35,808 nt of DNA. Source: Dehalococcoidia bacterium (GTDB lineage: Bacteria; Chloroflexota; Dehalococcoidia; SZUA-161). The position numbers and the translations under genes were made by a program. The DNA lies in NCBI GenBank assembly GCA_035529555.1, contig DATKWL010000025.1, positions 1-35,808 of the forward strand. Reading direction: 5' to 3'. Position 1 is the stretch's first letter. Every line of letters starts with the position of its first letter. The notes beneath the pieces were generated by a model that did not search any database, had not been told where the DNA came from, and saw only the letters and a program-made list of their open reading frames with translations. Positions 258 to 17,376 of this stretch are shown here, piece by piece.

Positions 258-3200
258 GATAGGATAGTCAGTGCCGGCAACGCCGTTAACCGAATCTACA
301 TAGACGCCATCTACCGCTTGGCTAACAGATTTGCGGTAGTCGTTTATAGTGACCACCCCGCCTGCCAAGTCTACTAGCTCACAGTCGCCGTAAAGGGTAA
401 TCGTGCCACCAGTGCAGGTGGCAGCTATCGTAAGAGTGCCCCCGGAGAGGTCGATTATGGCAGTAGCCCCGGCAACCATCTGTTTTACTGTAAGCGAGCC
501 TCTGCTGACTACCCGCTGCGTTACTGAAGTTGCAGACGATATCAGGTCAAGGTCTGGATTAGGCTGCGTGAAACTGATAGCGCCACCCGTCAAGGAGACT
601 TTATTCTGCAGCTTGCCGCCTATCTTGCAACTCCCGCTGATAGCGATGGTACCGTTGTTTACTAGGTCTATTCCAACGTGGCAGTCGCCATGAATGATGA
701 GTGAACCTGCCGGGAGATTTTGCGTAACGGTACAGCCGGCATCAAGATTACCCTCAACGGTGATGCTCTCTGCACCATTTGTCATGGGACCATCGCCTAT
801 CTGACAATTACCTTTAATAACGATTATGCCGTTATTATTCAGGAGGCTACCTATCTGGCAGTTGCCATAAATAGCGAGTTCGCCACCAGCGGCAATATTC
901 AAGTTGGTGCCTATGTGACAGTCACCGTTGACGTAAAAGGTGCCTGCACCGGTCTGACTGATGTTGGAGCTTGTATGGCAGTTACCGTCTATATAAATAT
1001 CGCCTGTGGCATTGCCGATTGATTCTGCTTCGACGTTACCATGAACGGTAATATCGCCACTGGCATTGTTAACTATACTGCCGCCCATCACATGTAGGTC
1101 ACCATGGATTGTTATGGCGCCACCAAGAAGCTGAGTAATGCCGGACGCGATTTGGCAGTCGCCTTTAATAGTGATATAACCTGATGCGGTATTGCTAAGT
1201 ATGCTACCTACCTGACAATTCCCGATTATTGTGATGTCGCCTGTATCGGTCACGGCGAGACCGGTGCCCGTCTGGCAGTCGCCATAGATGTAGATGGAGC
1301 CTGTGGTATTTGATATGGGCCCGCTATAGACGTGGCAGTCGCCATAGATTCTGATGGAGCCTATGTCAGTCTGGGAGATGCCGGTATCCCTTACATCGAG
1401 ATTACCATAGATGTATATGTTCCCTTCTGTATTGGTCAACCCACGCATCTGGCAGTCGCCATAGATGTAGATGTTGCCTGTGGTATTGTCTAGCCGCCCA
1501 AGGAACTCGCAATTGTAGCAATTGATGATACCAAAAGGAGGATTGGTTACTCCACCGGCACCAAACCTACACCCGTGATAGTTGCTTCCCCCCACAGTAT
1601 GAGCGATGATAGTCGCAATATCACAGTCCCAGAACTCTGAGACGCTGACCAGGTTTGAACCGGTTGTATCCGTTATTCTCAGATTGATGAACGTGCAGTT
1701 AATAACCTGACCGTTGAAGTCCACAAGTGGGCTTAGTGCCCCTTCCTCCCCTTCGCCAATAAAAAGCACGTCTGCAAGCGCCCCTGTGAATTGTAGTGTC
1801 GTCCCGGGGTTTCTCAGCACTACTTTATCTAAGTTGCGGGCAGCAAGAATCGCTAGAAGGTCGGCCTCATTATCTACGGGCATTCCAGGCGTACCAATCG
1901 GATAAGCAGTTCCCGCCACACCGTTGACTGAATCGAAATAGACGCCATCAGCGGCCTGAAGTGCGGAATCCGCCGCACTCTTTTGTATCGTGTAGTCGTT
2001 GATGGTTGCTCCACCTGTATTATTAACTACGCGAGCATTTCCATAAATGTTAATAATACCTGCAACGCATGAAGCAGCGATGGTTAAATCAAGGCCATTT
2101 CCTACAATGTCGCTGTTAGACAAGGCAGCGCAGTTTGTGAGAGTAACATGGCCTCCAAGACAGTTTACCCCAACACAGTTCGTTATATTTATGGTCGCAT
2201 AAAGCTCATTACACTCAATGTACATGCGAGAGGTACCGCAAGTTATACCTGTTGAAATATCTATATAGCCACACTTTACGAATCTTACCAATGTTGTCAG
2301 ATTGCTTATTGTGTCTGCTTCTACATGCCCGCATCGTGAGAATACTGCTATGGCAAGGACACCAGTATAGGTTATTGCGCCACCTACGAATATGTGGTCA
2401 CAATCATGGAAGCTGCCGCAGTCGGTCATCGCCCCGCCTACGCTGATATGCCTGCCGCCGCTGATGTAATAACATCTTGTCATCGTGGTGGCAGATATAT
2501 CAACGCAGCTAATAATCCAAGAGCAGTCGGTCATTGTTGTTGCGGAAACCATGCCACAGTTGAAAAACCCCCGGTTGTTATTCATCGGCATAGTATTGAC
2601 ATAGCTGCAACCGATGAAGTAAGCGCAATCATGGGCTATCTTAACGTTAATATTAGCGCAATTTAAGAAATAGCCGCATGTATCCAAAGTGCCAGTGAAT
2701 GGCGCATCGTTTATGTTTATTGCCTCAAACGAGCAGTTGGATAGAGTGTGGCCGTTAATATCTATGGCATTCTCAGCGTAAGCAAAGCCGGAGTCAGAGA
2801 ATCCGTTTCCAATGAAATGGTAGCCGCTGCCATTGGCGTCTATGGTGATTTTTCCATGCACGAGGCGGATTGTGCTCAGCTTTCTTGCTGCGGCAATCGC
2901 CTTGGTATCAACCCAGTTGTTTGATGGAGACCCTGGCGTGCCTACAGGCCACGCCGTACCAGCGGCTCCACCGATAGAGTCGAAATAAACAGCATCCAGC
3001 GCATCTTCAATATCGGCAGTGGTTGCTCCCTTCTTGAGGGTAATAATCTTGTAATCTACACCCGCGGGAATAGGAGCAGCAATCCCTTTGTATGCGTGGT
3101 CAAGAGTTACCTCTCCGGTGACGTTGTTGAAGGCAGTGATATAAAACGATTCCACCTTCACTGACTGCCCTGGGTAGACGATAGCGAACATACCCACGTA

Positions 3201-3338
3201 GCTGATGCCAGCCCCAGCAAGCGCAACGTCTTTGAGGCTATCTCCAGCCCCCGCCCCAGCAGCACTCGTTATCCCTTCAGCAACTATCAGGCTCTGAAAT
3301 AGAGATACTAACTCACTCGCAGGTGGTCTTTCTGCCAT
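1..3338 (-). CDS. Giant modular tail-fibre / tailspike-like protein, N-terminal ~1112 codons (C-terminus lies beyond the window start)
   Basis: The minus-strand frame is open from ATG 3338..3336 to position 1, with GAGGTG 6 nt upstream just after the stop of 3348..3785. It is missing from the ORF track only because it has no in-window stop. Hand translation shows three DGVY[FV]DS..G.AGT.YP.GTPG modules, each followed by beta-helix-like repeats. Confidence 0.8.
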   Translation of the reverse strand, partial: MAERPPASELVSLFQSLIVAEGITSAAGAGAGDSLKDVALAGAGISYVGMFAIVYPGQSVKVESFYITAFNNVTGEVTLDHAYKGIAAPIPAGVDYKIITLKKGATTADIEDALDAVYFDSIGGAAGTAWPVGTPGSPSNNWVDTKAIAAARKLSTIRLVHGKITIDANGSGYHFIGNGFSDSGFAYAENAIDINGHTLSNCSFEAININDAPFTGTLDTCGYFLNCANINVKIAHDCAYFIGCSYVNTMPMNNNRGFFNCGMVSATTMTDCSWIISCVDISATTMTRCYYISGGRHISVGGAMTDCGSFHDCDHIFVGGAITYTGVLAIAVFSRCGHVEADTISNLTTLVRFVKCGYIDISTGITCGTSRMYIECNELYATINITNCVGVNCLGGHVTLTNCAALSNSDIVGNGLDLTIAASCVAGIINIYGNARVVNNTGGATINDYTIQKSAADSALQAADGVYFDSVNGVAGTAYPIGTPGMPVDNEADLLAILAARNLDKVVLRNPGTTLQFTGALADVLFIGEGEEGALSPLVDFNGQVINCTFINLRITDTTGSNLVSVSEFWDCDIATIIAHTVGGSNYHGCRFGAGGVTNPPFGIINCYNCEFLGRLDNTTGNIYIYGDCQMRGLTNTEGNIYIYGNLDVRDTGISQTDIGSIRIYGDCHVYSGPISNTTGSIYIYGDCQTGTGLAVTDTGDITIIGNCQVGSILSNTASGYITIKGDCQIASGITQLLGGAITIHGDLHVMGGSIVNNASGDITVHGNVEAESIGNATGDIYIDGNCHTSSNISQTGAGTFYVNGDCHIGTNLNIAAGGELAIYGNCQIGSLLNNNGIIVIKGNCQIGDGPMTNGAESITVEGNLDAGCTVTQNLPAGSLIIHGDCHVGIDLVNNGTIAISGSCKIGGKLQNKVSLTGGAISFTQPNPDLDLISSATSVTQRVVSRGSLTVKQMVAGATAIIDLSGGTLTIAATCTGGTITLYGDCELVDLAGGVVTINDYRKSVSQAVDGVYVDSVNGVAGTDYPIGTPGSPSNNWADTKAIATARKLSTIRLVRGKITIDANGSGYHFIGNGFSDSGFAYAENVIDINGPTLSNCSIEAININDAPFTGT
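590..1480 (-). repeat. About 15 tandem 18-21-codon coils with a G-[DN]-C-[QH] signature inside the fibre gene
   Basis: Translated units include GNIYIYGDCQMRGLTNTE, GSIYIYGDCQTGTGLAVTDT and GDITIIGNCQVGSILSNTAS. At DNA level ggcagtcgccatagat recurs at 1274, 1334 and 1451. Boundaries are approximate. Confidence 0.75.
2686..2942. repeat. Intragenic direct repeat, copy B (partner 1..257)
   Basis: Same alignment as copy A. Both copies encode the ~85 aa that follow the GTPGSPSNNW motif (..KAIA.ARKLSTIRLV.GKITIDANGSGYHFIGNGFSDSGFAYAEN..). Confidence 0.9.
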
Positions 3339-3347
3339 AAATGCACC

Positions 3348-3785
3348 TCACGGACCGTAGGTTATAGTCACCTTAATGTTTGTTACCGGACGTACCGCAT
3401 CGAGATTTTCGATACGCACCTTTAGAATATATGGGTGAGTTTCGTAATCCTTTGTCTGCCTCACAGTTGCGCCTGCAATAAATCCACCCACATTCCAGGC
3501 ATCCCAATCAACGGTGTCATAGCTTACTCCGTCATAAGAGGAGAGAACATGCACCTTAATTCCTGCTGTAGCGAGAGCGTGATATGCTGCTTCTACGGTT
3601 ACAGCTAGACGCTCTGGATTATTATGTAGGTCGACTGCCGTGCAATCTACGAGTGCCGTCGTAGCAAGAGCAACTAGATTTGCTACGTCTAGCACCTCTT
3701 GAATGGTTTTTTCAGGCGCAATGGGCATTGAATAATCGGGAGATCCGATACCTCTGGGAACAACCGAATAAACTTGCTCTGTCAT
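3348..3785 (-). CDS. Hypothetical virion-module protein (145 aa)
   Basis: ORF track. The ATG abuts the upstream stop (TAGATG) and GAGGAG lies 7 nt upstream. The gene sits directly upstream of the fibre gene in the same operon. Confidence 0.7.
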   Translation of the reverse strand: MTEQVYSVVPRGIGSPDYSMPIAPEKTIQEVLDVANLVALATTALVDCTAVDLHNNPERLAVTVEAAYHALATAGIKVHVLSSYDGVSYDTVDWDAWNVGGFIAGATVRQTKDYETHPYILKVRIENLDAVRPVTNIKVTITYGP

Positions 3786-4376
3786 CTATCTCTCCTCAAG
3801 GGTGATTGTCACGGTTATAGTATGTGCCCAGACAGCATCCGCATTAGCGATGTCTACCCATACATCAATCCCACTGTCAACGTCTTGCCCTTCGCCGAAC
3901 TTATAGGCAAGGGTAACATTGTTAAGTGAAATGTAATTATATCTGGGGAGCACTCTCTCACTACCCCTGTTTACCGCGACATCGACCAGGCCATTGCATC
4001 CCAGGGGCCAGTGAATGACCACTTCGGTCACCCTGGCGCTAAACTGCGGTCTTTCAAATATCCGTACTCCCGTAGCAGCGGGCACCGTCCTGCTAAATAG
4101 GATAACCTCAGACTTTTTTTCTACGCCCCCACCTGGTAATTGTTCTAAGAGCTTGCCTATGTTCTCCAGCCCCTCTAAAACAGCAGCCAATATATCAGCA
4201 TTTTTCTGCAAGATATCCTGGCTTGTTTCCTCGATCGCCGCGAGCAAGTTCAGTAGAGCTTCATTATCAGTGCCAGGCTGCGCTTTGGCCCTCTGTGTAG
4301 CCAGCAATACTGCCACTGCACCAAGGCCCGCACCGACGGCTACTTTCCCGGCATCACTGGTTTTATCCTCAGCCAT
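3786..4376 (-). CDS. Hypothetical protein with N-terminal membrane anchor (196 aa)
   Basis: GGAGGT lies 4-5 nt upstream of the ATG. The N-terminal hydrophobic stretch VAVGAGLGAVAVLLAT is followed by a helical segment and then a beta-rich segment. Confidence 0.7.
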   Translation of the reverse strand: MAEDKTSDAGKVAVGAGLGAVAVLLATQRAKAQPGTDNEALLNLLAAIEETSQDILQKNADILAAVLEGLENIGKLLEQLPGGGVEKKSEVILFSRTVPAATGVRIFERPQFSARVTEVVIHWPLGCNGLVDVAVNRGSERVLPRYNYISLNNVTLAYKFGEGQDVDSGIDVWVDIANADAVWAHTITVTITLEER

Positions 4377-4394
4377 ATCGACCTCCGTTTATAA

Positions 4395-4429
4395 GAAAGG
4401 GCTCGCCTCATGCTAAGGCAAGCCCTTTC
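4395..4429 (-). terminator. Intercistronic hairpin (possible weak terminator or attenuator)
   Basis: Perfect 9-bp stem GAAAGGGCT/AGCCCTTTC with a 17-nt loop, between 4499..5329 and 3786..4376. Only a short U tract follows on the minus strand. Confidence 0.35.
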
Positions 4430-4498
4430 GTTCCCTCAGCCTTTAGCCATATAAGGCGTTTGGCGTCTTGCTAGATAGACAACGGTTTTCTTGGTTGC

Positions 4499-5329
4499 TT
4501 ACTCAAGTTGTAGCCAGTAGAACTGGTCGCCATCGGCAGGTGCAGCAGTTCTTGGTAACAGATAGCCGGCATACTGTGCCCCTAGGCCTGCACTGGCATC
4601 TCCGAAAGGCCACAAGTTACCCGACTGTGCGAACCACAGAGGCCTTCTATCAGCAACGATTCCAGGGACAGTACCATCGGCTACACCATAGCATGGTCCG
4701 GCCCTTTGACCCCAGAAGAAGTTATTGATAGGTACGGCAACTGGGGGGACGCAGACTACAGTGTTAAATCCTGCAGGCATTCCAGGTGAACCTGGTGCTC
4801 TGACGTTGCTAAATACGTTGGGGTAGCCAGTGATAGCGGTGCCAGCGGCTGCAACCTGTTCAATTGGCCTGTCTAAAGTTAGAGTAGTGACCCCAGCAGC
4901 GGTGGCAGTGTTGCTTAATATCCTGTACCACTGCATATTCACAGTGAAAATCACCAACCACCCGCCCGCATACGCATTCGCTACGCAGACTCCCTCGGGA
5001 ACCACTATGGTACGAGAGCCAGCGACCGCTCCCGCCACCCCCAAGACGCCGTTTATCGGCCACTGAGTGAAGTTGAAGCAGCCGATGTTTCTCTCAAGGG
5101 CGGTCTGCCCAAAACAATATCTGAAAGTCCTCTCGTCAATAACCATGCGAGAGCCGAGTGTATAGTTTGGCACTAAGGAGAGTTCCCAGTATTGCTGCTC
5201 TGCGCCAGTCAAGTTCACGCATGGTCCCATTATTCGACCCGGCAACTGCGATAGCGGGTCGGTTTGTAGTGGCCCCAGGTCACCCTGAATCCTTCGTCCT
5301 AGAATGTAACCTATTTTCTTCGTCGTCAT
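4499..5329 (-). CDS. Hypothetical virion-module protein (276 aa), Gly/Ala/Val-rich
   Basis: ORF track. AGGAGAAGG lies directly upstream of the ATG. Size and position would suit a capsid or tail component, but I recognise no family motif. Confidence 0.7.
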   Translation of the reverse strand: MTTKKIGYILGRRIQGDLGPLQTDPLSQLPGRIMGPCVNLTGAEQQYWELSLVPNYTLGSRMVIDERTFRYCFGQTALERNIGCFNFTQWPINGVLGVAGAVAGSRTIVVPEGVCVANAYAGGWLVIFTVNMQWYRILSNTATAAGVTTLTLDRPIEQVAAAGTAITGYPNVFSNVRAPGSPGMPAGFNTVVCVPPVAVPINNFFWGQRAGPCYGVADGTVPGIVADRRPLWFAQSGNLWPFGDASAGLGAQYAGYLLPRTAAPADGDQFYWLQLE

Positions 5330-5450
5330 TTCCTTCTCCTTCTTGTGTCACTTCCCTTTATGTAGGGCTTACTTACTCATATCGGCGTGACACGACCTAG
5401 TTAGTTGCGCCCTACCGCAACCGGGCTCTTCATTCCCCTCCTTCTCCCCC

Positions 5451-5834
5451 TTATGTCGGGACATCCACATATCGCACAATTAAGTCAATCGTTCCGGCAG
5501 CGCTGCAAACAGCGCGCAGGAAACTCTGCGTCAGCGCCGTGCCCCCGCCGCCCTCGATGATATATAAGGGCAGGGCGTCCTCTTCGATGGGGCCATCCGG
5601 CTTGGGCAGATAATCGTTAATCAGGGAAAAGCTGAATCGGTCAATCGTCGTTGTAGCACCGGCGCCATTCTCACGCTTGCCCAGCGTAAGCAAGTTCACT
5701 CCTGCGAAGAGGTTCTGCGCCTCTATCTGCAGGATATGCCGGCGCATATTCCGCGTGACCTCTGTCCCGATATCAGCGTCCACATTGGTTACAGAGGCAT
5801 AAATTGTCTTGATGTCTTCGGCTTTCCAACTCAT
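5451..5834 (-). CDS. Hypothetical virion-module protein (127 aa)
   Basis: The start overlaps the upstream stop as ATGA (5831..5834), which suggests translational coupling. Confidence 0.65.
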   Translation of the reverse strand: MSWKAEDIKTIYASVTNVDADIGTEVTRNMRRHILQIEAQNLFAGVNLLTLGKRENGAGATTTIDRFSFSLINDYLPKPDGPIEEDALPLYIIEGGGGTALTQSFLRAVCSAAGTIDLIVRYVDVPT

Positions 5835-6532
5835 GGCTGCTCCTCCATAACCTTCTTGGCGTAATCGAGCAACGATGTGCCCACCAGGTCGCTAAGCCAC
5901 TTGGGAATCGCGGTCGGGCTCGGGTCAATTGGCCCCATCGTGTATTTCCTGACCCTCCTTGGCCCCTTGAGAAGGTCAGAAATCATTGCTTGATTCGTTA
6001 GCACCTTAAAGGTGTATTTCATCGTGTCAAAGACGAGCTTGACATTCGTAATGGCATCGCCCGTGGGGTTAAGCGCCTGAAATGCCGGGTATTTTTCATA
6101 GACGCAGAACAGCTCGGTTGCAGGGTTGAAGGGTCCAGCGTAGGGGCTATCATTGCCGTCCAGGTAGCCGACGTCACCATCGGCGAGGCTGATATTCCTG
6201 GTCGAGGCCAGCAAGCTGCCGATGTCCTTTTGCGAGGGGAACTGAGTATAGATACGAGCAGCAGACGGAGTAACACCCCAGAAGTGGTGATAGATAAAAT
6301 TCTGGCTCCGAGGCTGCAAGAAGTACACGTTATTGGGACCCTGTATCGTATTCCAACCAGCTACTATATTGCCCCCGGCGGCCACTGCCCCCAGTGAGTA
6401 CGGGCGTAGTTTGCTAGGTTCCCTCCCGGTTATCTTGAAGCAAACCCACCCCTCTGAGAACTGCAGCGCCAAGTAGTAACCCTGTTCGAGCCACCGGTCT
6501 GTATGACTTTGCTTGATAAGCGCTGTTTCCAT
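5831..6532 (-). CDS. Hypothetical virion-module protein (233 aa)
   Basis: ORF track. AGGAGG lies 5 nt upstream of the ATG at 6532. Confidence 0.7.
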   Translation of the reverse strand: METALIKQSHTDRWLEQGYYLALQFSEGWVCFKITGREPSKLRPYSLGAVAAGGNIVAGWNTIQGPNNVYFLQPRSQNFIYHHFWGVTPSAARIYTQFPSQKDIGSLLASTRNISLADGDVGYLDGNDSPYAGPFNPATELFCVYEKYPAFQALNPTGDAITNVKLVFDTMKYTFKVLTNQAMISDLLKGPRRVRKYTMGPIDPSPTAIPKWLSDLVGTSLLDYAKKVMEEQP

Positions 6533-6605
6533 AGCCCCTCCTTAGCTTTAGTCTTTCGCCTTAGAGGCACGGGGGGCTGGCTTGCGCCAGCCCCCTAAAA
6601 GCCTT

Positions 6606-7361
6606 TTAGGTTGTAGGATAAACAGTTGTGGCGCGAATGGCTCTACCGAGGCCGAACACCAGGCCGCCCAGTTGCACCTCATCAGTGACAGCCGCTACGG
6701 TATCCGAGCGCCCTCCCCCATAGAAGACATCCCGTGGGAGAAGCATCAATGTCGGCATGGGCACAATAGGAATCCCATTGACAGTATCACCGACTCGGAG
6801 CGAGCGGACATCGAACGGGATTAGCACACCCGTTCTTGAGATGGTAAACTGGCATTCGGCAAGGACCGGCGTCGGGGTTAGCAGAGATTTCAGGTGGGTG
6901 GCACAGAACCCGAAAGAGAGGCCGATTAGATAGCCGATTCCCGGAGCCGAAGAGAACCAGTCAGCCCAGGCTACTGTGAAAGGCTGAGCCCAGGTCACTT
7001 TCACCGCGCCGGCTACCTGAGTGAACACCGGGCGGATATACCCGAAGCCCAGCTCAGTATCCTCCGGATTCAGCCCCTTGAACTTTTTGCCCCCAAGCTC
7101 CTCCTTGACAGCTCTCAGGGTGACAATGTACGCCTCCAGCCTGTCCAGCATCAGGGTGCGTTCCTCACTGCCCGGGGCTGCCAGCAAGGTGACGAACTGC
7201 GATTTGAATAGCGCGAGCTCGTCATCATCAAGCGGCTTTCCCAGGACGTACGTCTGGTTGTACAGCTTGATTTGTTTCCTGGTGACCGGGTTCAGTTGCT
7301 CAGGAGTGCGCCAGGTCGCGCTTGTGTTGTTCAGGGCCATTACAATTCCAACATCCGCCAT
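6606..7361 (-). CDS. Hypothetical virion-module protein (251 aa)
   Basis: I moved the start to the internal ATG at 7361 (MADVGIV..) because GGAGGG lies 6 nt upstream. The track ORF extends to 7379. Confidence 0.7.
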   Translation of the reverse strand: MADVGIVMALNNTSATWRTPEQLNPVTRKQIKLYNQTYVLGKPLDDDELALFKSQFVTLLAAPGSEERTLMLDRLEAYIVTLRAVKEELGGKKFKGLNPEDTELGFGYIRPVFTQVAGAVKVTWAQPFTVAWADWFSSAPGIGYLIGLSFGFCATHLKSLLTPTPVLAECQFTISRTGVLIPFDVRSLRVGDTVNGIPIVPMPTLMLLPRDVFYGGGRSDTVAAVTDEVQLGGLVFGLGRAIRATTVYPTT

Positions 7362-7424
7362 TTTGCGTCCCTCCGTCAAGTTATTTGTTTATTGGTTATA
7401 TGGCCTTGTTCTCAGATTTTCAGG

Positions 7425-7829
7425 TCAAGACAAGAGTTCGTCTTGGTAGGTGAGCGGCTGTGCTAGGTCGCGCCCGGCACCCCCACCAGGGTTCTGAGGC
7501 CTGGCGCCAGCTCCGGGGTTGGCGGGCTGTTTCTTTTTTCGGGGCAGAAACACCCTCTCTGTGGTCTCCCCGCCGATCGCTGCTCGAATCGGCTTCGATA
7601 CCGATTTCACCAGCAGCGGAGTTGACGACAGAGCCAGGGCCTCGCCGAGCTTAGTCTGTCTGGGCATGAAGATCTGGATGCCATACCCGGCCAGAGCTCC
7701 AATAAGTCTCACGATATCCGTGGCCTTACGGAAGGGCTCCGTGCGAGCTTCCTTCTCGTCCCAGGACTCCATCACCTCGTCGACCACGCCCACGCCGACC
7801 GATATTCCGCTCTTCATCAGGTCAACCAT
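7425..7829 (-). CDS. Hypothetical protein (134 aa) with a Gly/Pro/Arg-rich basic C-terminal tail
   Basis: AAGGAGGT lies 6 nt upstream of the ATG at 7829. This is the first gene after the hairpin array. Confidence 0.7.
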   Translation of the reverse strand: MVDLMKSGISVGVGVVDEVMESWDEKEARTEPFRKATDIVRLIGALAGYGIQIFMPRQTKLGEALALSSTPLLVKSVSKPIRAAIGGETTERVFLPRKKKQPANPGAGARPQNPGGGAGRDLAQPLTYQDELLS

Positions 7830-7865
7830 CTCTACCTCCTTTTCCTACCTACGGAACGCTGTCTG

Positions 7866-7921
7866 CAAAAAAGGAAAGCCTGCGGACCGACCCTTTCGCA
7901 GGTCAGCGTCCCGCAGGCTTT
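7866..7921 (-). terminator. Intrinsic terminator T3 (minus strand)
   Basis: Minus-strand RNA folds as GCCUGCGG..GACC-UGCGAAAG-GGUC..CCGCAGGC followed by UUUCCUUUUUU. Confidence 0.65.
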
Positions 7922-8010
7922 ATATTTAATTTAATTGACTAAACTGATGTCGCTTTCAACATCCCGCAGGCTTTTTCAGACGATTCCCCCTTTTGCGGGA
8001 TGCCGTCCGC

Positions 8011-8066
8011 AAAAAGAAAAAGCCTGCGCGCCGAACCTTTTCGCAGTTCAGCGTCCCGCAGGCTTT
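8011..8066 (-). terminator. Intrinsic terminator T2 (minus strand)
   Basis: Outer stem GCCUGCG/CGCAGGC, inner stem GAAC/GUUC, then UUUUUCUUUUU. Confidence 0.65.
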
Positions 8067-8158
8067 CTTTAATTAAATACCGACAGCTTCAGCGTCCCGC
8101 AGGCTTTGATTGTTATCCCTGGGGTGTCCTCACACACCCCCCACGGGATGCTGGCCGT

Positions 8159-8212
8159 AAAAAGAAAAACCTGCGGGCTGGACTTTTTACAGTTCAGCAT
8201 CCCGCAGGCTTT
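8159..8212 (-). terminator. Intrinsic terminator T1 (minus strand)
   Basis: 8-bp stem CCUGCGGG/CCCGCAGG followed by UUUUUCUUUUU. It begins about 6 nt after the predicted start site of promoter 8225..8252. Confidence 0.65.
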
Positions 8213-8224
8213 ATTTGATTACAA

Positions 8225-8252
8225 TATATACAGATTTTTTAGAAAATGTCAA
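8225..8252 (-). promoter_or_regulatory. Sigma70-type promoter, TTGACA-N16-TATATA
   Basis: The minus strand reads cTTGACAttttctaaaaaatctgTATATA. It shares the 13-mer CTTGACATTTTCT with promoter 10416..10444. Confidence 0.6.
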
Positions 8253-8260
8253 GCGTCAAG

Positions 8261-8719
8261 CTAGACCTTGGCATAGGCAACTTCCAAATTGGTCACCGCC
8301 TGGGTCATTATCTGCACAATCCCGGCGTCAGTATCAATCGCCAGGAAGTCCGCCTCGATGGACGTGTTCGTCCTGCTGATCCATATGTAGGTGTCGTAGT
8401 AAGAAGCCCTCATGGCAGAGGTGATGGTGAGCACGGCGCTGAAGGTGCGGTCCAGTGATACCTCTGCGGTTGCCAGAGGGACAGCGATGACGGCTGAGGC
8501 GAACACCCCCGCCTCGAGGTTATTGCCATTGTTGAAGTCGCCGTCGCCCTTCTTCAGCCCCCAGCAGACATACAGGTTCTGAGCTGGACCGATGTACTTG
8601 AAGGTTGCCCTATTGGCAGCCACTCTTTCCCCTGTCACAACCTTTATCGGATAACTCCCGGGCAGGGCAGCGAATTCACGTTCGAAAACCTCCAAACCTC
8701 TGATACTTCCCTCTCTCAT
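8261..8719 (-). CDS. Hypothetical virion-module protein (152 aa), paralogue of 8729..9211
   Basis: AGGAGG lies upstream of the ATG. It shares blocks with its neighbour: F.Y.GP...L[YF][VI]CWGLKKG.GDFNNG.NL and YDTYIW[IV]...DF[IL]..AIDTDA. The C-terminus is NLEVAYAKV. Confidence 0.7.
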   Translation of the reverse strand: MREGSIRGLEVFEREFAALPGSYPIKVVTGERVAANRATFKYIGPAQNLYVCWGLKKGDGDFNNGNNLEAGVFASAVIAVPLATAEVSLDRTFSAVLTITSAMRASYYDTYIWISRTNTSIEADFLAIDTDAGIVQIMTQAVTNLEVAYAKV

Positions 8720-8728
8720 GGCAACCTC

Positions 8729-9211
8729 CTAGACCTTGATCTTGACGGCATCCGCATCTGTATCGATGGCCAGAATAAAATCCTCGTCCGTTGTAGCTTC
8801 CCCGAAGGTAATCCAGATATAGGTATCGTAATTCTTGGCCTCTATCGCATCGGGGTCGAGATAGAGCACAGGCTGTGTCTCGAAGTCCTTCTTGGGGGTG
8901 AATGAGTATTTCTTTCCCGCCACTGCCTCCACTTCCATGGGGCCGCCCCAGGTCCAGAGGCCTCCGGCGAGGTTGGCGCCGTTGTTGAAGTCACCGCTGC
9001 CCTTCTTCAGCCCCCAGCAGATAAATAGCTGCCTCTCCGGGCCGGTATAGGTGAAACTCACCTTCGACAGAGTGACCTTATCGCCCAGATAGATAGCAGG
9101 CGGTTTTTTCAGCGCATAATAGAGGCCGCCGCCGATGAGCGCAACGCCTGTCCCTACCGCGATTACTTTGCCGGTATCAACTTTTGGCGCAGTCTTCTCT
9201 TCTATTGCCAT
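8729..9211 (-). CDS. Membrane-anchored paralogue of 8261..8719 (160 aa)
   Basis: I moved the start to ATG 9211 (MAIEEKTAPK..), with AAGGTG upstream just after the stop of 9217..9879. It has a TM stretch VIAVGTGVALIGGGLYYAL. Confidence 0.7.
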   Translation of the reverse strand: MAIEEKTAPKVDTGKVIAVGTGVALIGGGLYYALKKPPAIYLGDKVTLSKVSFTYTGPERQLFICWGLKKGSGDFNNGANLAGGLWTWGGPMEVEAVAGKKYSFTPKKDFETQPVLYLDPDAIEAKNYDTYIWITFGEATTDEDFILAIDTDADAVKIKV

Positions 9212-9216
9212 AATCT

Positions 9217-9879
9217 TCACACCTTCGCATAGGCCACCTCGAGGGATTTCACCTGAGCACTTACCCCCGCTGCAATTGTAAACGGCCCCTTTAATTCGTC
9301 CTGTACCCATGAGGGTATATCGAAGTCGTAGTGGCCTGCGACAATGTTGAACTGAAGGTCGTAGTCAGGCATGGTAAATGAGACGTTGAAGTATGTTGGC
9401 TGGCCAGCAGGAAGCCATGTGTATATCGGATAAATATCGCCCCACCAAGCCGGGTAACCCCACACTGTAATATAGGCGTCCACGCCCCCTACATTTTTAA
9501 CCAGGACTGAGACCTGAACCGTAGTTCCTGGGGAGGCTTGATTCGGGTAGCTGATGGTTTGTATTTGCGCTTTAGCGGAGGAAGGAGCAGGCGGGTATCC
9601 TTCGGTAAGAGCACCAGTCATAGCATTTATGGTATAAATTCCGCCATCGCTGAGGTTAAACGGGCCGTAGGGTCCTAACTGTTGAGGTGTGGTAGGCTGC
9701 GCCCTTACAAGCACCCAGTAGCCGTTCAACTCGATGTTGGAGATATCGAAGCTCTGGTCGATAGGGATTCCGCTTTCCCAGTATCGCCACTGCTGCGTTG
9801 CCTGGTCATAGCTCATTATGGTCCAGGCATATGTGCCTTCGGGAAAGTTCGTGGCGAATAGTCGAAATGACCCTAACAT
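9217..9879 (-). CDS. Hypothetical virion-module protein (220 aa) with an Ig-like (CARDB-like) segment
   Basis: The segment PGTTVQVSVLVKNVGGVDAYITV resembles CARDB/Ig-like strands. The C-terminus SLEVAYAKV matches that of 8261..8719. Confidence 0.7.
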   Translation of the reverse strand: MLGSFRLFATNFPEGTYAWTIMSYDQATQQWRYWESGIPIDQSFDISNIELNGYWVLVRAQPTTPQQLGPYGPFNLSDGGIYTINAMTGALTEGYPPAPSSAKAQIQTISYPNQASPGTTVQVSVLVKNVGGVDAYITVWGYPAWWGDIYPIYTWLPAGQPTYFNVSFTMPDYDLQFNIVAGHYDFDIPSWVQDELKGPFTIAAGVSAQVKSLEVAYAKV

Positions 9880-9882
9880 TCT

Positions 9883-10365
9883 CTATCTCCGGGCTGCCGT
9901 GATGTACTCCGGGCCCTTCTCAACCACCCTGGTCGCTACCGGCCTCATGACATAGGCAGCCAGCACCAGACCACCCACGCTGATTAAGGTTACAGGAATG
10001 ATATATTTCGCCAGGGCATCGATAACACCACCCACCTTCCAGCCCAGGAAGGCCGTAATTCCCAGCCCGCCCAATGCCGTGATTATCAACAAGGCCAGCG
10101 GCCAGGCGGCCACTCCTTGAGGGCGGTTGGGTCTGGTGAAGACCATACGTAGCGCATCAGGCCATTGTTTAGTGGAGCCCATTTCTATGGAGTGCAGCAG
10201 AAGTCCTGAGCTTAGCAGGCGTTGCTCCAACTGGTCTACTTCCTGGTCGCTGAGGTCCCGGGGCAGTCCCAGAATGAGTTCAACCTTCTGCCCCGGCGAG
10301 TAGAATTCCATGACTGCCCTGTCCAGAGACCTCGTGTCTGTGCCTTCCAGCTTGACTTTGGCCAT
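9883..10365 (-). CDS. Membrane protein (160 aa), first gene after promoter 10416..10444
   Basis: GGGAGGAG lies 5 nt upstream of the ATG. There are two C-terminal TM helices (WPLALLIITALGGLGITAFLGW and IIPVTLISVGGLVLAAYV). Confidence 0.7.
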   Translation of the reverse strand: MAKVKLEGTDTRSLDRAVMEFYSPGQKVELILGLPRDLSDQEVDQLEQRLLSSGLLLHSIEMGSTKQWPDALRMVFTRPNRPQGVAAWPLALLIITALGGLGITAFLGWKVGGVIDALAKYIIPVTLISVGGLVLAAYVMRPVATRVVEKGPEYITAARR

Positions 10366-10380
10366 GGCGCTCCTCCCAAA

Positions 10381-10409
10381 TAAAAAAGGCCTGCGGGGCC
10401 GCAGGCTTT
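10381..10409 (-). terminator. Leader hairpin / intrinsic terminator between promoter and first structural gene
   Basis: Minus-strand RNA reads AAAGCCUGCG-GCCC-CGCAGGCC followed by UUUUUUAUUU, directly before the SD of 9883..10365. Confidence 0.55.
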
Positions 10410-10415
10410 ACATAT

Positions 10416-10444
10416 TATGTATACGAAAATTAAGAAAATGTCAA
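10416..10444 (-). promoter_or_regulatory. Sigma70-type promoter, TTGACA-N17-TACATA (alternative -10 boxes nearby)
   Basis: The minus strand reads cTTGACAttttcttaattttcgtaTACATAatatg. The -35 box and the first 7 spacer nt are identical to promoter 8225..8252. Confidence 0.55.
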
Positions 10445-10503
10445 GTATAGAGGCCGAGCGGTTTTACTAAGTAATGGTTGTATTTAACGATTGCCGGAAG
10501 TGG

Positions 10504-10519
10504 TGCTAAGTTATGGTTG
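10504..10519. repeat. Left arm of a 16-bp inverted repeat flanking ORF 10584..11090
   Basis: TGCTAAGTTATGGTTG matches the reverse complement of 11082..11097 at 15 of 16 positions. A direct near-copy CTAAGTAATGGTTGT lies at 10467. Confidence 0.4.
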
Positions 10520-10583
10520 TCAGACAAGCGGACACTACAGGTAGTGGTAGGAGAGACGCTATGCAAAGTGATAGAATAGGGAC

Positions 10584-11090
10584 ATGGATTTCAATTTCAG
10601 GCGTGGATTGTTTATCAGTCTTATTATCGGCGGGATGGCCGCTATGATGGTAGGAGTACTTTCTACGGCCGAAGCTTCTCTATGTGTTGGGATAGTAATG
10701 CTAATGTTAGCCACAATTTGGGGATTTCTGTTTTTATGCCCCAAATCCCCAGTGAAAAAATACTGGTGGTCTATCCCGGATAAACTAATGTTTGTGATAC
10801 CAAAAGAACCCGGCTACAAAGCAACAGTGCACAGTGAATATGTATCTGTCTGGGTAGACCTAACCTCCCAGTCAGGCATAATGGTTGATAGAATAGCTAT
10901 AAAAATAGGCCGGAAAAGGATTTACTCTTTTGAGTGGAAATCACATGAGGTAGCGGCACATGAACATAAATTCTTAGATTTCAAGAGACCTGATTGGTTG
11001 GGTACAGGGAAGTATGAAGCTAAGTTGATTGCTTATACCACTGAGGGCTATTCCCAATCCAGGAAGTTTATACTTGAGAATCAACCATAA
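10584..11090 (+). CDS. Membrane protein (168 aa), oppositely oriented low-GC moron
   Basis: ORF track. Two N-terminal TM helices are followed by a beta-rich domain. It is the only plus-strand gene inside the minus-strand module. The SD is weak. Confidence 0.6.
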   Translation: MDFNFRRGLFISLIIGGMAAMMVGVLSTAEASLCVGIVMLMLATIWGFLFLCPKSPVKKYWWSIPDKLMFVIPKEPGYKATVHSEYVSVWVDLTSQSGIMVDRIAIKIGRKRIYSFEWKSHEVAAHEHKFLDFKRPDWLGTGKYEAKLIAYTTEGYSQSRKFILENQP

Positions 11091-11097
11091 GTTAGCA
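11082..11097. repeat. Right arm of the 16-bp inverted repeat (overlaps the stop codon of 10584..11090)
   Basis: CAACCATAAGTTAGCA. See 10504..10519. Confidence 0.4.
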
Positions 11098-11129
11098 TCG
11101 GGTAAGGCAGCCCGAAAAACAACTATAAC

Positions 11130-11798
11130 TTAGGAGAACCGGCCGAGCTCCCTGAGCCGGCAGGGACACGACACCTTCTTAACGTCCAGGCAGATCTCCT
11201 CGTCCATGCAGGTCAGATGGATATCGTTGACAAAGGCATCCGGTATATAAGTGGAGGAAACCAAGGCCATCGGGATCCAGGGATTACGATTACATGAAGG
11301 CGGCGGCATTGTTGCCTCGAGAACATACCAGACGCCATTTTGACGCTGCACGATGACCCAGGCGTGGCCGCCAACATGGTCTACAGCAAGCTGACCAATA
11401 GCCATAGAGACCCTGTCCTCAGGCAGGCGGTTTCTCAGCAGCGATACCAAAAGATTAGACTTCCCCACGCAGTTGGCAGCCCCCTTCTTGAGCACCTGCT
11501 CAGGAAGAAGGCAGCGCTGGCAATAGACTGTGCTGTCGTAGAACTGCACGGTGCTGCCATAGGATTTGTACCTGATCTTCCGTCCAACCAGGTCCCAGGC
11601 TGCCAGGATAAATTCGTCCTCGTCCTGAGGCAGAGTAGCGGCGATATCGGCGACATTCTGAGGGCTGAACAGCTCGTCCAGTGCATATGTGCCCTTGTTC
11701 AGGCGGGACTGAATCCACCATACTGATAGACCCGCGGCTAACGAGCCGGTGAGACTCAGAAACAGATGTTGGCCAAGCTTGTTCTGTTCAGTGGTCAT
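11130..11798 (-). CDS. Transglutaminase-like cysteine protease-fold protein with N-terminal TM helix (222 aa)
   Basis: I moved the start to ATG 11798 (MTTEQNK..), which has GGGGGA upstream. The Cys-His-acid pattern GAANCVGKSNLLVSLLR ... GGHAWVIV ... YVLEAT is typical of the transglutaminase-core fold. Confidence 0.7.
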   Translation of the reverse strand: MTTEQNKLGQHLFLSLTGSLAAGLSVWWIQSRLNKGTYALDELFSPQNVADIAATLPQDEDEFILAAWDLVGRKIRYKSYGSTVQFYDSTVYCQRCLLPEQVLKKGAANCVGKSNLLVSLLRNRLPEDRVSMAIGQLAVDHVGGHAWVIVQRQNGVWYVLEATMPPPSCNRNPWIPMALVSSTYIPDAFVNDIHLTCMDEEICLDVKKVSCPCRLRELGRFS

Positions 11799-12306
11799 CT
11801 TTTTCCCCCGGCCATGATTCCAGCCATATCCCCTCATTGTCCTGCCTGACCCATAAGTGATGTGATGGTATGAGCCAGGCCAGAATGCTTTGCTTGGAAG
11901 GAGAGGCAATAAATACTTCATCGGCGACACGGTAGAGCTCATTTATAGCCTGAACAGCGTCGTCGATAGCAGGGAGATGTTCGATTACGTGCGACGCCAG
12001 TGCGGTTTTGAAAAAACCATCAGGGAAGGGGATATCCCTGACATCGGCCACCACGGATTCACAGCCAGTGCAGGCCCTGGGCTCTATGTCCAGACAGACA
12101 TCGCCACAGCCGTGCGCCTTCATGTTAAAAAGACCGCGGAGGGGATTGGTGCCGTAAGGTCCTCCCACTACCAGCATCGGCTTGCCGGCTTCCCTGGCGA
12201 TGTGCCAGGCCAGGGCGTACTTATCGTTGCGCTCCTTAACCTGGCTAAAGCCAACTTTCGCCTGCCAGCTCAGCAAAGATATAGCCAGGAAATGCACGGC
12301 TTTCAT
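11788..12306 (-). CDS. Class I SAM-dependent methyltransferase (172 aa)
   Basis: LVVGGPYG (motif I-like), CLDIEP, and ADVRDIPFPDGFFKTALASHVIEHL (Methyltransf_11-type motifs). The start is coupled to the upstream stop as ATGA. Confidence 0.7.
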   Translation of the reverse strand: MKAVHFLAISLLSWQAKVGFSQVKERNDKYALAWHIAREAGKPMLVVGGPYGTNPLRGLFNMKAHGCGDVCLDIEPRACTGCESVVADVRDIPFPDGFFKTALASHVIEHLPAIDDAVQAINELYRVADEVFIASPSKQSILAWLIPSHHLWVRQDNEGIWLESWPGEKDDH

Positions 12307-12533
12307 GATTGCGGATTTTCTCCCTTAAGCTCTTTGTCGATCTCCCTGAGGCGCTCTAAAAGTTTGTCCCTCTCGGATTCCAGTTTTTCCTTTTTATCGG
12401 GTTCTGCTTGAGCGCCCGTGTCTTCGATGGTGATTTTCAGAGGCCCCAGTTGTAGCTTGGCCTGCTCTATTTTAATCCCCAGATCTCCAAGGGTCAATTT
12501 CTTGCCCTTCTTAGGCGACTCCTCACCGTTCAT
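12303..12533 (-). CDS. Small coiled-coil protein (76 aa)
   Basis: GGAGGAG lies upstream of the ATG. The Lys/Glu/Leu-rich heptad-like sequence reads EKLESERDKLLERLREIDKELK. Confidence 0.6.
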   Translation of the reverse strand: MNGEESPKKGKKLTLGDLGIKIEQAKLQLGPLKITIEDTGAQAEPDKKEKLESERDKLLERLREIDKELKGENPQS

Positions 12534-12888
12534 GTTCTCCTCCCACTTGTGACCTCAGCCACTTTATTTCTTTATTGACCCATATCTGAGCCTTCTCATC
12601 GGCCTTAATAAGCTTGACTAACCATGGGGGCAGAAGGCTTACCAGGTCATCATCGGTCAGCGCTTCCAGAGCCCAGCGATACTTTTCGGCGGATTTAAGT
12701 GCCTGTTTCCACTCCTCGGGTATGTGAGGATAAAATCGCCGGTCGTTGTTAATGAGCCACTTGATTTTGTCCTCCCCGATGGTATTCAGGACCGGCCACA
12801 GGTGCTCTTCCGCGGGGTCCCTGGCCTCTGAAAGTACGACATGTCGCTTCAGACCTTTGACATTAAACTTGGGAAACTTCACTTTCAT
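12523..12888 (-). CDS. Hypothetical protein (121 aa)
   Basis: ORF track. GGAGG lies 9 nt upstream. The gene is operonic with its neighbours through short overlaps. Confidence 0.6.
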   Translation of the reverse strand: MKVKFPKFNVKGLKRHVVLSEARDPAEEHLWPVLNTIGEDKIKWLINNDRRFYPHIPEEWKQALKSAEKYRWALEALTDDDLVSLLPPWLVKLIKADEKAQIWVNKEIKWLRSQVGGEHER

Positions 12889-13834
12889 CCTTGGTCGCCT
12901 CCACTATTTCCCATACCGAGCCGCATCCGCCTTCATCAGTTTTGCACTCCACCTCTGCAGCATCCGGCGGCACATCCAGCATTTTGCCACAGGTACACTT
13001 GACCTTCTTGGGCCTTATTATCCTCTCCCGGGGAGGAGGCTCTGCCTTCTGTTTTCTTGCCGGCGCCTCGTAGCCCTCCTCCGTTTCGATTGACTCCATA
13101 ATACCCTCCGCCAGGTTCAGCAGTTTTGATGTTGCTTTGTCCTTGCGCTGCTCATCTTTTTGCGCAAGTAGCTGGGTGTCAGCTGCCGCTTGTTTCCTCA
13201 GTTCAAAATCCTCCAGCCAGTGACGGTCATCTATTTCCCAGCGGCGCTTCTTTTCCGCCAGGTCTTCTGTCCACCGGTCATGACGGCCCGACTCGGCTAT
13301 CTTGATCTTCTCCAGCTCTATCATATTGGGCAGGTCGGAGGGTTTCGTAGCCATGGAATCTGGAAGTCCCATCCGTTTCTTTAGCTGGTCGACCAAGGTG
13401 TTTAGCTTGACATCAGTCGCCATCAACAAGTCTATCGGGTCGGCCGTGCCCTCGGAGACCTTCTGTTTCAAGTCATTGAGGTCTTCCTTGAGATGATCCA
13501 GATAAAGGTCTGAGCCTGACCCTTTGCCGCCTTCACTCAGTTTATTCAGCGCAGACTGTACCAGCTCGCTCTGAGACTTGAAAATTGTTCCGATGTCTAT
13601 TGTCACCTTCTCGTCCGATTTCCCCACGGCAGCCGGTGGGGCCTCTTCTTTAATCCCCGCAGCCTGCTTGAAGGCTTTCAATCTCTCGCCTCTATAGACC
13701 GCAGCTTCGATCTGGTCAACGGGGTCTGGTGCCTCTTTTTCCTCCTTCGGTTTCTCAGATGGGGGTTGCGCCGTTAGGTTCAGCTTCCTCGACACATCTT
13801 CCGCGAAGTCCTTCCTGTCCGTTGGTCCTGCCAT
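12863..13834 (-). CDS. Long coiled-coil protein with C-terminal zinc ribbon (323 aa); a scaffold-like role is only a guess
   Basis: AGGAGG lies 6 nt upstream of the ATG at 13834. A charged helical body is followed by the C-terminal segment CTCGKMLDVPPDAAEVECKTDEGGCGSVW. Confidence 0.7.
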   Translation of the reverse strand: MAGPTDRKDFAEDVSRKLNLTAQPPSEKPKEEKEAPDPVDQIEAAVYRGERLKAFKQAAGIKEEAPPAAVGKSDEKVTIDIGTIFKSQSELVQSALNKLSEGGKGSGSDLYLDHLKEDLNDLKQKVSEGTADPIDLLMATDVKLNTLVDQLKKRMGLPDSMATKPSDLPNMIELEKIKIAESGRHDRWTEDLAEKKRRWEIDDRHWLEDFELRKQAAADTQLLAQKDEQRKDKATSKLLNLAEGIMESIETEEGYEAPARKQKAEPPPRERIIRPKKVKCTCGKMLDVPPDAAEVECKTDEGGCGSVWEIVEATKDESEVSQV

Positions 13835-14201
13835 GATTGCCTCCTGTCCCTGTTTGATAGATTGACCTCATGAAGCGGCACGCTACTCGTATGAAAGAGG
13901 AGAAGTCACCCTCAGCCCCCATACTTTTCACATCGCGATACTGGTCGTAGGCATCATCGATGTCAATGCGAAAGAGTGGTATTCTGTCGTCGCCCAGGAT
14001 GAAGGTATGAAGAGGCTGTTCCTTTGTGGTGCTGAGAGGTTGACTCTGGGTGAGGGATGGCTTAAGGCCGGCGCCGTTCTTCTTGAACTGCTGGAAATAG
14101 TTATAGGTCGTTCTTTTTCCCAGTCCCAGCGCCTTCACGTCCGGGTCGCTGGGACGTTTACCCTGGGAGTATAGCTCAAAGGCCTGCTCTTTCTTGCTCA
14201 T
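13755..14201 (-). CDS. Helix-turn-helix protein (149 aa), first gene of the minus-strand arm
   Basis: I moved the start to ATG 14201 (MSKKEQAFELYSQGKRPSDPDVKALGLGKRTTYNYFQQFKK, HTH-like). The track's 5' extension would cover the operator region. The 3' end overlaps the next gene by 80 nt. Confidence 0.55.
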   Translation of the reverse strand: MSKKEQAFELYSQGKRPSDPDVKALGLGKRTTYNYFQQFKKNGAGLKPSLTQSQPLSTTKEQPLHTFILGDDRIPLFRIDIDDAYDQYRDVKSMGAEGDFSSFIRVACRFMRSIYQTGTGGNHGRTNGQEGLRGRCVEEAEPNGATPI

Positions 14202-14216
14202 AGCCACCCGCCTCGA

Positions 14217-14290: not shown

Positions 14291-14311
14291 ACCCGCAGGC
14301 CTTTCTCCAGT

Positions 14312-17375: not shown

Positions 17376-17376
17376 T

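Follow-up and report, generated by a model that had tools for sequence, protein, structure and literature searches.

The DNA analysed here, referred to as the window, is a stretch of 35,808 nucleotides (contig DATKWL010000025.1 of assembly GCA_035529555.1, labelled Dehalococcoidia bacterium) and covers about 36 of the about 52 kb of a larger element. The element is probably an uncharacterised mobile element or virus of about 50 kb, belonging to a dark family of probable Chloroflexota association. The subject of this report is a 431-nucleotide gap on its minus (coding) strand, located between the stop codon of the open reading frame (ORF) 8261-8719, which encodes a 152-amino-acid protein, and the ATG at 7829 of a conserved gene for a 134-amino-acid protein. 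The gap contains a predicted promoter (P2) followed by an array of terminator-like hairpins, and very large beta-helix proteins are encoded downstream of it.

The minus strand of 7830-8260 contains three hairpins of canonical intrinsic-terminator form (T1, T2, and T3), 145-146 nucleotides apart, and two extra copies of the hairpin 5' arm (H_B and H_C). The hairpins share the form AAAGCCUGCGG..CCGCAGGCUUU and are followed by a U-rich tract of 11-12 nucleotides. The 5' arm together with the A-rich loop is defined here as S1. The U-tract together with the next approximately 15 nucleotides is defined as S2, and the S2 cores of the three units are labeled X1, X2, and X3. The features of the gap are as follows, from promoter to start codon.

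8223 to 8252, minus strand: predicted promoter P2, with a -35 of TTGACA (8252-8247), an 18-nucleotide spacer, and a -10 of TATATT (8228-8223).
8159 to 8212, minus strand: T1, composed of hairpin AAAGCCUGCGGG..CCCGCAGG (8212-8170) and U-tract UUUUUCUUUUU (8169-8159), -25.1 kcal/mol.
8140 to 8154, minus strand: X1, the S2 core of unit 1, CCAGCAUCCCGUGGG, complement of the T1 5' arm.
8121 to 8140, minus strand: spacer hairpin, GGGGUGU-GUGAGG-ACACCCC; relative L069 has GGGGGU..ACCCCC at the equivalent place.
8080 to 8107, minus strand: H_B, same-sense 5'-arm copy without a 3' arm or U-tract, with X1 as its predicted partner.
8011 to 8066, minus strand: T2, composed of a hairpin (8066-8023) and tract CUUUUUCUUUUU (8022-8011), -31.3 kcal/mol.
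7994 to 8004, minus strand: X2, GGCAUCCCGCA, with one mismatch to the T2 arm.
7944 to 7974, minus strand: H_C, second same-sense 5'-arm copy, with its own small hairpin (GAUGUUGAAAGCGACAUC); kept in relatives L015, L069, and L072.
7867 to 7921, minus strand: T3, composed of a hairpin (7921-7879) and pyrimidine tract CUUUCCUUUUUU (7878-7867), -31.7 kcal/mol.
7847 to 7861, minus strand: X3, the S2 core of unit 3, CAGCGUUCCGUAGGU, which pairs with all 15 nucleotides of the T3 5' arm, including three G.U pairs.
7827 to 7839, minus strand: Shine-Dalgarno (SD) sequence GGAGG (7839-7835) and ATG (7829-7827) of the conserved 134-amino-acid gene.

A repeat search found a 56-nucleotide block three times (7868-7923, 8013-8068, and 8159-8214), with spacings of 145 and 146 nucleotides. 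The block 3' of the U-tract is also present three times, with spacings of 144 and 148 nucleotides. The 16-mer GCCTGCGGGAYGYTGA occurs five times, always on the minus strand and always within the gap, against a chance expectation of 0.12, and none of 100 shuffles reached five occurrences. Three of the five copies are the hairpin 5' arms, while the other two (H_B and H_C) lack a matching 3' arm; the spacings between copies are irregular at 53, 92, 41, and 105 bp. When the RNA was ended at its own U-tract, each of the three hairpins folded with an energy between -25 and -32 kcal/mol. Their stems consist of 7-8 G/C-rich base pairs and an upper stem, and 9-10 nucleotides of each tract are U. As predicted elements, T1 to T3 have every sequence feature of strong intrinsic terminators.

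A preliminary description of this DNA had placed an array of terminator hairpins on the coding strand of the gap, which the repeat search and folding confirm in substance. It had counted about 2.5 copies of a unit of about 146 bp. The units do measure 146, 145, and 92 nucleotides, but the array is degenerate, with a mutual identity of only 65-71% and with indels, and Tandem Repeats Finder reported no array in the gap because of this degeneracy. The terminator ends it had predicted at 8159, 8011, and 7866 lie at 8159, 8011, and 7867, within one base. The tails, described as identical on all units, differ: T1 and T2 have UUUUUCUUUUU and T3 has CUUUCCUUUUUU. Rfam searches at gathering and permissive thresholds gave no meaningful match (best 21 bits against cut-offs of at least 50), and a tRNA/tmRNA search found none.

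P2 starts 8 nucleotides past the stop codon of ORF 8261-8719 and is predicted to be a near-consensus sigma70-type (host-type) promoter. Its score of 11/12 makes it the top promoter-like site on the minus strand of 1-18000, and the promoter scan found no comparable minus-strand promoter downstream of 7829. T1 starts approximately 13 nucleotides past the -10 element, and a P2 transcript ending at T1 would measure approximately 55-60 nucleotides. Elements at the position of P2 in ten lineages have a -35 of TTGACA, a 16-18-nucleotide spacer, and a -10 with A2/T6, with spacer sequences that differ from one another. Because P2 lies directly upstream of the array, the array is to be regarded as a 5' leader and not simply as the end of the upstream genes. 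The sole minus-strand ORF in the leader (8200-8069, 43 amino acids) was rejected as a leader peptide, as its AUG is not present in the relatives.

Nine metagenome contigs carry the same element with an identical gap. Samples in which the element is present include JGI 3300031565/66/69/73/78, ENA ERZ272568xx, and Hainich groundwater. Diverged relatives were reached through homologues of the flanking proteins, and those with promoter, hairpin, tract, S2, and SD are labeled L015, L016, L069-72, L073-75, L076-78, L079/80, and L081. Every hairpin-bearing relative has the same order of upstream stop, promoter, hairpin, pyrimidine-rich tract, short segment (S2), SD, and ATG, and the order of promoter, hairpin, pyrimidine tract, and SD ahead of the same 134-amino-acid gene is kept in six sequence-distinct relatives. 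L067 has the promoter and lacks the terminator. The leader before the hairpin is short (approximately 5-14 nucleotides of RNA) in the single-unit relatives L016 and L073, where the hairpin lies approximately 13-14 nucleotides from the -10, and is longer in L076, L080, and L081.

The relatives can be sorted by the number of units. L016 has one unit, and L015 has one unit with an H copy before it. In L069-71 and L072 there are two units whose junction holds one H copy, and the window has three units with H copies (n=2) at both internal junctions. The distant lineages L073-75, L076-78, L079/80, and L081 have one unit each. T3 is the unit common to all relatives. L069, L072, and the window each have as many H copies as internal junctions, and L015 resembles what a deletion from the first 5' arm to the H copy would leave of an L069-like array. 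Since the diverged relatives have a single unit, close relatives one or two, and the window three, the triplication is, as judged by this comparison, a recent and lineage-specific amplification of a conserved single unit. It probably arose by unequal recombination between direct repeats.

One homologue is present on a contig of a metagenome-assembled genome labeled Dehalococcoidia. IMG/VR and GTDB genomes contained no protein relatives, and the phage GenBank collection gave no match in near or distant modes. A single IMG/VR 18-mer match (L001, n=1) fell in G+C-rich coding-like DNA and was discarded as a chance match. A metagenome motif scan was badly designed; all 50 of its 50 matches were chance matches in G+C-rich DNA and were also discarded.

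Downstream of each U-tract lies the material for a second fold. S2 is complementary to S1, and read-through RNA can form an extended hairpin of 20-26 bp that excludes the terminator; this helix needs S2 to be present. Duplexes between the 5' arm and the downstream strand have energies of -20 to -32 kcal/mol, and for nine of ten units only 0-2 of 1000 shuffles were as good. Within the window, X1 pairs with the T1 5' arm at -28.6 kcal/mol (0 of 1000 shuffles as good), and the minimum free energy (MFE) structure of the read-through RNA is the extended hairpin. X3 pairs with the T3 5' arm at -29.3 kcal/mol (0 of 1000). The exception among the ten units is the T2 unit (W_T2), in which X2 pairs with the T2 arm at -20.6 kcal/mol and 23 of 1000 shuffles were as good; a further possible pairing is between the T2 U-tract and the AAAAGG after X2. 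In L076, L080, and L081, S1 and S2 have wholly different sequences that are complementary to each other and not to those of other lineages.

When complete units were folded, the RNAfold MFE structure moved from the terminator to the extended fold in 8 of 11. The RNAalifold consensus is the extended fold, with five compensated pairs. The extended fold reaches 86.7% pairing across nine window-type units. Its covariation score is 0.237; shuffles give 0.181, with none of 500 as high, and slid controls give no more than 0.105. Pairing in the terminator helix reaches 93% within these nine units, but the helix is too conserved there to covary, so that its conservation as a structure is visible only across distant lineages. 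The preliminary description had suggested a search for covariation in related elements. Hairpin pairing is indeed kept in the relatives, and the covarying partner is S2, downstream of the U-tract. The extended helices contain 32 G.U pairs and 2 A.C-type (A.C or C.A) mismatches. The tolerance of G.U and the rarity of A.C put the selected pairing on the sense-strand RNA and speak against both a DNA palindrome and an antisense RNA.

The polymerase reaches S2 only once the U-tract has been made, and S2 therefore cannot prevent termination of its own transcript. Direct-path search gives an upper bound of 19-34 kcal/mol for the barrier from the terminator fold to the extended one; given this high barrier, a terminator hairpin that has formed likely stays. 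The extended fold should be present mainly in transcripts whose terminator hairpin was prevented. A translational switch, in which the SD is hidden in one fold and free in the other, was dropped as the main mechanism because the predicted SD accessibility changes in opposite directions among the relatives when the two folds are compared.

The stem CCUGCGG is not confined to the array. It is common to the hairpins behind four promoters of the window, located on both strands: the array itself and the three sister sites listed here.

10378 to 10444, minus strand: sister site with promoter (TTGACA at 10444), hairpin GCCUGCGG-CCCC-GCAGGC (10406-10389), CUUUUUUAUUU, SD, and ATG at 10365.
14315 to 14414, plus strand: sister site with promoter TTACCA-18-TATAAT, hairpin ACCUGCGGGC..GCGCAGGU, UUUUUU, and ATG at 14418.
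14961 to 15075, plus strand: sister site with promoter TTGACA-17-TACTGT, hairpin GAAGACCUGCGGCAACGCAGGUCUU, UAUAUUUUU, SD, and ATG at 15092.

The hairpins of the sister sites begin approximately 7-16 nucleotides from the -10, and their U-tracts abut the SD or start codon. The site at 10444 is conserved in L015, L069, and L072. L081 has two promoter-proximal hairpins with a common but different stem, GGGAAUCG. An ordinary-looking terminator at 18154 on the plus strand has a stem unrelated to CCUGCGG. These genome-specific common stems suggest either joint control by a sequence-specific factor or the copying of one module.

The region is read here as the 5' leader of the gene block that begins at the 134-amino-acid gene, carrying a conditional terminator gate of the antitermination type. 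This reading is tentative and is given slightly less than an even chance. It is drawn from sequence, folding, and the comparison of relatives. The sequence places a constitutive-type promoter and then terminators ahead of a long gene block. The promoter, the stop signals that follow it, and the second conserved read-through fold point to a gate on expression and not to an ordinary gene end. Everything downstream, from 7829 to 1, would have to be transcribed through T1 to T3. By default, transcripts from P2 and from upstream would end at T1 to T3 and release a short hairpin RNA, leaving at least ten downstream genes off or low. Expression would need a factor that blocks hairpin formation or makes the polymerase resistant (antitermination). 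S2 would capture the 5' arm only where the terminator hairpin had been prevented, and the transcript would then be locked in the non-terminator fold, perhaps with a different stability or processing. The copy number of the unit (1, 1.5, 2, or 3 among the relatives) would shift by unequal recombination between the direct 5'-arm repeats and so tune the leak, with three copies forming a tighter gate. The CCUGCGG stem behind three other promoters may indicate one shared, genome-specific control.

The preliminary description had likewise proposed serial terminators gating 7829 to 1. That part stands as far as terminator-like hairpins are concerned, and it is strengthened because a promoter lies upstream, no comparable minus-strand promoter lies downstream, and the arrangement is conserved and recurs at three other sites. 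The arm switch joined to it is not supported, as set out below. Several points weigh against the conditional gate. A hairpin at the extreme 5' end with a U-rich tract behind it could also serve to stabilise the mRNA or enhance translation. L073, L076, and L081 have a U-run that is short or broken by C, and terminator strength in distant relatives is uncertain. The units W_T2, L072a, and L076 retain the terminator fold as the MFE structure. S2 cannot itself block termination, and the role assigned to it is one that we infer. T1 to T3 are judged as terminators by their sequence, and their effect depends on the response of the host RNA polymerase. No antiterminator candidate was found among about 30 window proteins in Pfam, ten in PHROG, and ten in PADLOC.

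A more specific form of the conditional gate is speculative and rather unlikely. In it, a genome-specific antitermination system would use the terminator hairpin as its recognition site, after which, in the leader of the 134-amino-acid gene, S2 would capture the freed 5' arm to give a history-dependent, kinetically locked two-state leader. A factor of the element would recognise the stem or 5' arm (CCUGCGG here, GGGAAUCG in L081) at several promoter-proximal hairpins and prevent their folding, much like the recognition of a cognate boxB by an N protein; one candidate for this factor is the protein encoded by the gene invariably found behind the leader. The locked fold would mark transcripts of assisted read-through for different stability, RNase III processing, or translation.

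Other explanations must be weighed against the conditional gate. The terminators may form an attenuator or insulator of fixed ratio, constitutive and partly leaky, with constant small read-through and no dedicated factor. For the small beta-sandwich proteins encoded upstream, they would serve to end or stabilise the mRNA. S2 would merely tidy the RNA made by read-through, for instance by keeping nucleases or Rho away from a U-rich, C-rich single strand. This explanation is unlikely but deserves serious consideration. Canonical terminators are found directly past a run of paralogous genes, the SD-proximal tract is CC-interrupted in all lineages, which should weaken termination, and copy number varies among close relatives as simple tuning predicts. 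However, a near-consensus promoter upstream and not downstream of the terminator would be wasteful if termination were never relieved, and three strong serial terminators would leave little read-through for at least ten genes without another strong promoter. The same stem behind four promoters on both strands also points to shared control. The hairpin and U-rich tract could instead be a 5'-untranslated-region module that does not act as a terminator in this host, protecting the 5' end and/or aiding ribosome loading, and copied to several operons. The position of the sister-site hairpins close to the -10, their U-tracts abutting the SD or start codon, and the weak U-runs of distant relatives fit such a module, but it is distinctly improbable: T1 to T3 show all features of strong intrinsic terminators, only the first copy could stabilise a 5' end, and neither the triplication nor the S2 covariation is explained. 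Predicted SD accessibility also shows no consistent difference between folds. It is very improbable that the array consists of small-RNA genes, with the promoter-to-T1 RNA of approximately 55-60 nucleotides (and processed T2 and T3 units) as a base-pairing product and S2 as its cis target, in the manner of StxS from lambdoid PR'-tR' or the P4 CI and P1 c4 immunity RNAs. A promoter followed by an immediate terminator is the anatomy of a small-RNA gene, the complementary target adjoins the SD of the downstream gene, and a regulatory small RNA produced by early termination has precedent (PMC7547250). Against this, the hairpin sequence is fully replaced in L076, L080, and L081 with the structure kept, so there is no conserved small-RNA seed; each mRNA bearing S2 already has its own 5' arm in cis, and Rfam gave no match.

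The preliminary description had favoured an attenuator in which the outcome, termination or read-through, is set by competition among three alternative upstream arms for a single 3' arm. The three upstream partner arms of the promoter-distal unit exist, within one base of where it had placed them, and a local fold can join H_C to the T3 3' arm. As a mutually exclusive switch the proposal is nonetheless highly improbable. The arms are identical in polarity and sequence, and any choice among them leaves the same 3' arm in a stem beside the U-tract, so that no antitermination would result. The extra arms are absent from the single-unit relatives L016, L073, L076, L080, and L081, the leader has no upstream complement, conserved leader peptide, or aptamer match, and the covarying partner lies downstream. 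In the local fold of the window, X1 pairs with H_B and leaves T2 intact, while the partner of H_C is either X2 or the T3 3' arm, the latter still leaving a stem that abuts the U-tract. It is possible that the H copies are decoys, each absorbing the X box of the preceding unit and sparing the next 5' arm; the match between H copies and internal junctions fits this idea without proving it. The preliminary description had also offered protein-binding iterons or a packaging site. A DNA-level element of this kind, a replication origin with iterons or a packaging (pac/cos) site with a protein bound to the repeated 16-mers and inverted partial copies, has a close to negligible probability. Five direct 16-mers with AT-rich spacers in a 55% GC genome would suit it. 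Both forms conflict with the single copy in most relatives (L016, L073, L076, L080, and L081) and with strand-specific pairing that is kept through G.U and not A.C; the sequence is replaced between lineages with the pairing retained, the 16-mer spacings are irregular, and the hairpin always lies between promoter and SD with a U-tract.

The conditional gate can be compared with known systems. The lambdoid PR' promoter fires constitutively, and its transcripts end just downstream until Q acts; the predicted arrangement here is alike in its host-type promoter, near-immediate intrinsic terminator, short default RNA (6S/StxS), and long late block on read-through (PMC7547250). It differs from PR'-tR'/Q in having three tandem terminators with a conserved refolding strand past the U-tract, in recurring at four promoters, and in placing the array amid a co-directional gene row. 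No Q homologue and no Q-binding or pause element was identified, with Pfam applied to about 30 proteins of about 36 of the about 52 kb, most without any match. Tn916 has mobile-element terminators with an element-encoded antiterminator, and is alike in that a mobile element is silenced by internal terminators and antitermination is required (PMC11658703). The cis-acting antiterminator RNAs canT of Tn916 and put of HK022 are separate structured RNAs between promoter and terminators, a place that in the window is taken by the terminator alone.

At lambda tI/sib, read-through lengthens the existing stem, and the effect falls on the upstream int gene from its 3' side. The likeness to sib lies in a structure that is exclusive to the read-through RNA and partly beyond the terminator, here the 20-26-bp helix formed only with S2, and in a long duplex of RNase III-substrate size, for which cleavage is hypothetical here. 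The difference is that the read-through strand displaces the terminator 3' arm and does so in the 5' leader of the regulated gene. Classical attenuators, riboswitches, and T-box platforms also have two exclusive folds in a 5' leader, with an intrinsic terminator as one of the two, but here the competitor is downstream of the U-tract, without a leader peptide or aptamer. An upstream segment pairing with the terminator arm is absent in L016 and L073, and none was seen in the longer leaders of L076, L080, and L081, where no dedicated test was made. The tandem terminators rrnB T1T2 stand at operon ends, and tandem riboswitches are ligand-sensing units. Serial stops multiply stringency in these systems as they may here, whereas the array is a copy-number-variable leader behind a promoter.

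The P4 CI and P1/P7 c4 RNAs are structured and precede, within one transcript, complementary sites close to a ribosome-binding site. ToxI of type III toxin-antitoxin systems has the order promoter, tandem repeats, terminator, gene. Both resemble the leader in combining an upstream structured RNA with a downstream complement near the ribosome-binding site. There is no Rfam C4 match here, and unlike ToxI the units are 146 nucleotides long and single in most relatives. Where a type III system has an endoribonuclease toxin gene, the 134-amino-acid protein had no PADLOC match; its model, of low confidence, has three helices and a disordered basic tail.

If the conditional gate is correct, at least ten genes, giant beta-helix proteins included, depend on passing a terminator stack of variable copy number. 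Textbook attenuators have the competitor upstream and do not cover a conserved strand past the U-tract. The S1:S2 pair is a concrete, mutable RNA element, and the common stem at four promoters is a handle on a regulator among genes of almost no recognisable function. Should the hairpin itself be the recognition site, this would be a new antitermination design in a dark family of mobile elements or viruses with a probable Chloroflexota association. A merely leaky terminator stack would be ordinary.

Ten neighbouring proteins gave no Pfam or PHROG match, and ten proteins gave nothing relevant in PADLOC. Among the about 30 window proteins, Pfam gave only five matches, all unrelated to antitermination (E2/JAB/ThiF, DnaN-like, and HTH_17). 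No tailed-phage hallmark was found in the window, so the "structural operon" and "fibre" of the preliminary description remain guesses. The element differs in size from the Dehalococcoides IME1 viruses (bioRxiv 10.64898/2026.09.15.751708). The upstream 152-amino-acid protein is confidently predicted as a beta-sandwich, with a predicted local distance difference test (pLDDT) score of 81, and a fold search returned generic weak beta-sandwich matches with template modelling (TM) scores below 0.5. Elsewhere the window encodes two tyrosine recombinases, a sliding-clamp-like protein, and an E1/E2/JAB set. On the plus strand of 24807-28707, Prok-E2_D (prokaryotic E2), JAB peptidase, and ThiF/E1 genes stand in a row and are followed by a diverged DNA polymerase III beta-like gene.

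Just upstream of the leader is a paralogous trio (8261-8719, 8729-9310, and 9217-9879). The first two paralogues share CWGLKKG.GDFNNG and YDTY.WI, and the first and third share a LEVAYAKV tail. Strains L002 and L011 of the window's element have an identity of 99.2-99.9% over 20 kb, apart from approximately 260 nucleotides in the 152-amino-acid gene (8290-8546), and their 152-amino-acid proteins are only 65% identical. The substitutions are of all types, and a diversity-generating retroelement was rejected on this ground. The divergence looks like an allele or cassette swap. In the region of the giant beta-helix gene, a repeat of approximately 260 nucleotides with 95% identity is present at 4-263 and 2689-2948 (minus strand), and the giant beta-helix protein has the same module of approximately 90 amino acids at both ends.

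A near-consensus promoter, TTGACA-17-TATCAT, is located at 15405-15448 on the plus strand. Its -35 is flanked by a perfect 11-bp inverted repeat (GTATAGGGCAG / CTGCCCTATAC) that looks like a candidate operator. An ORF-poor, A+T-rich stretch of approximately 300 nucleotides at 18160-18470 (plus strand) contains short inverted repeats (e.g., AATCTAATTAGATT). A strong terminator at 18130-18163 precedes this stretch, which may serve as an origin or a regulatory region. Lastly, three of the 50 chance matches of the motif scan (L021, L048, and L054, on unrelated metagenome contigs) fall in a different repeated element. Its GCCTGCGG/CCGCAGGC arms are nested around each other (..tagccgcaggctttaGCCTGCGGGATG..CCGCAGGctaaagcctgcggcta..), and it looks unrelated to the element of the window.

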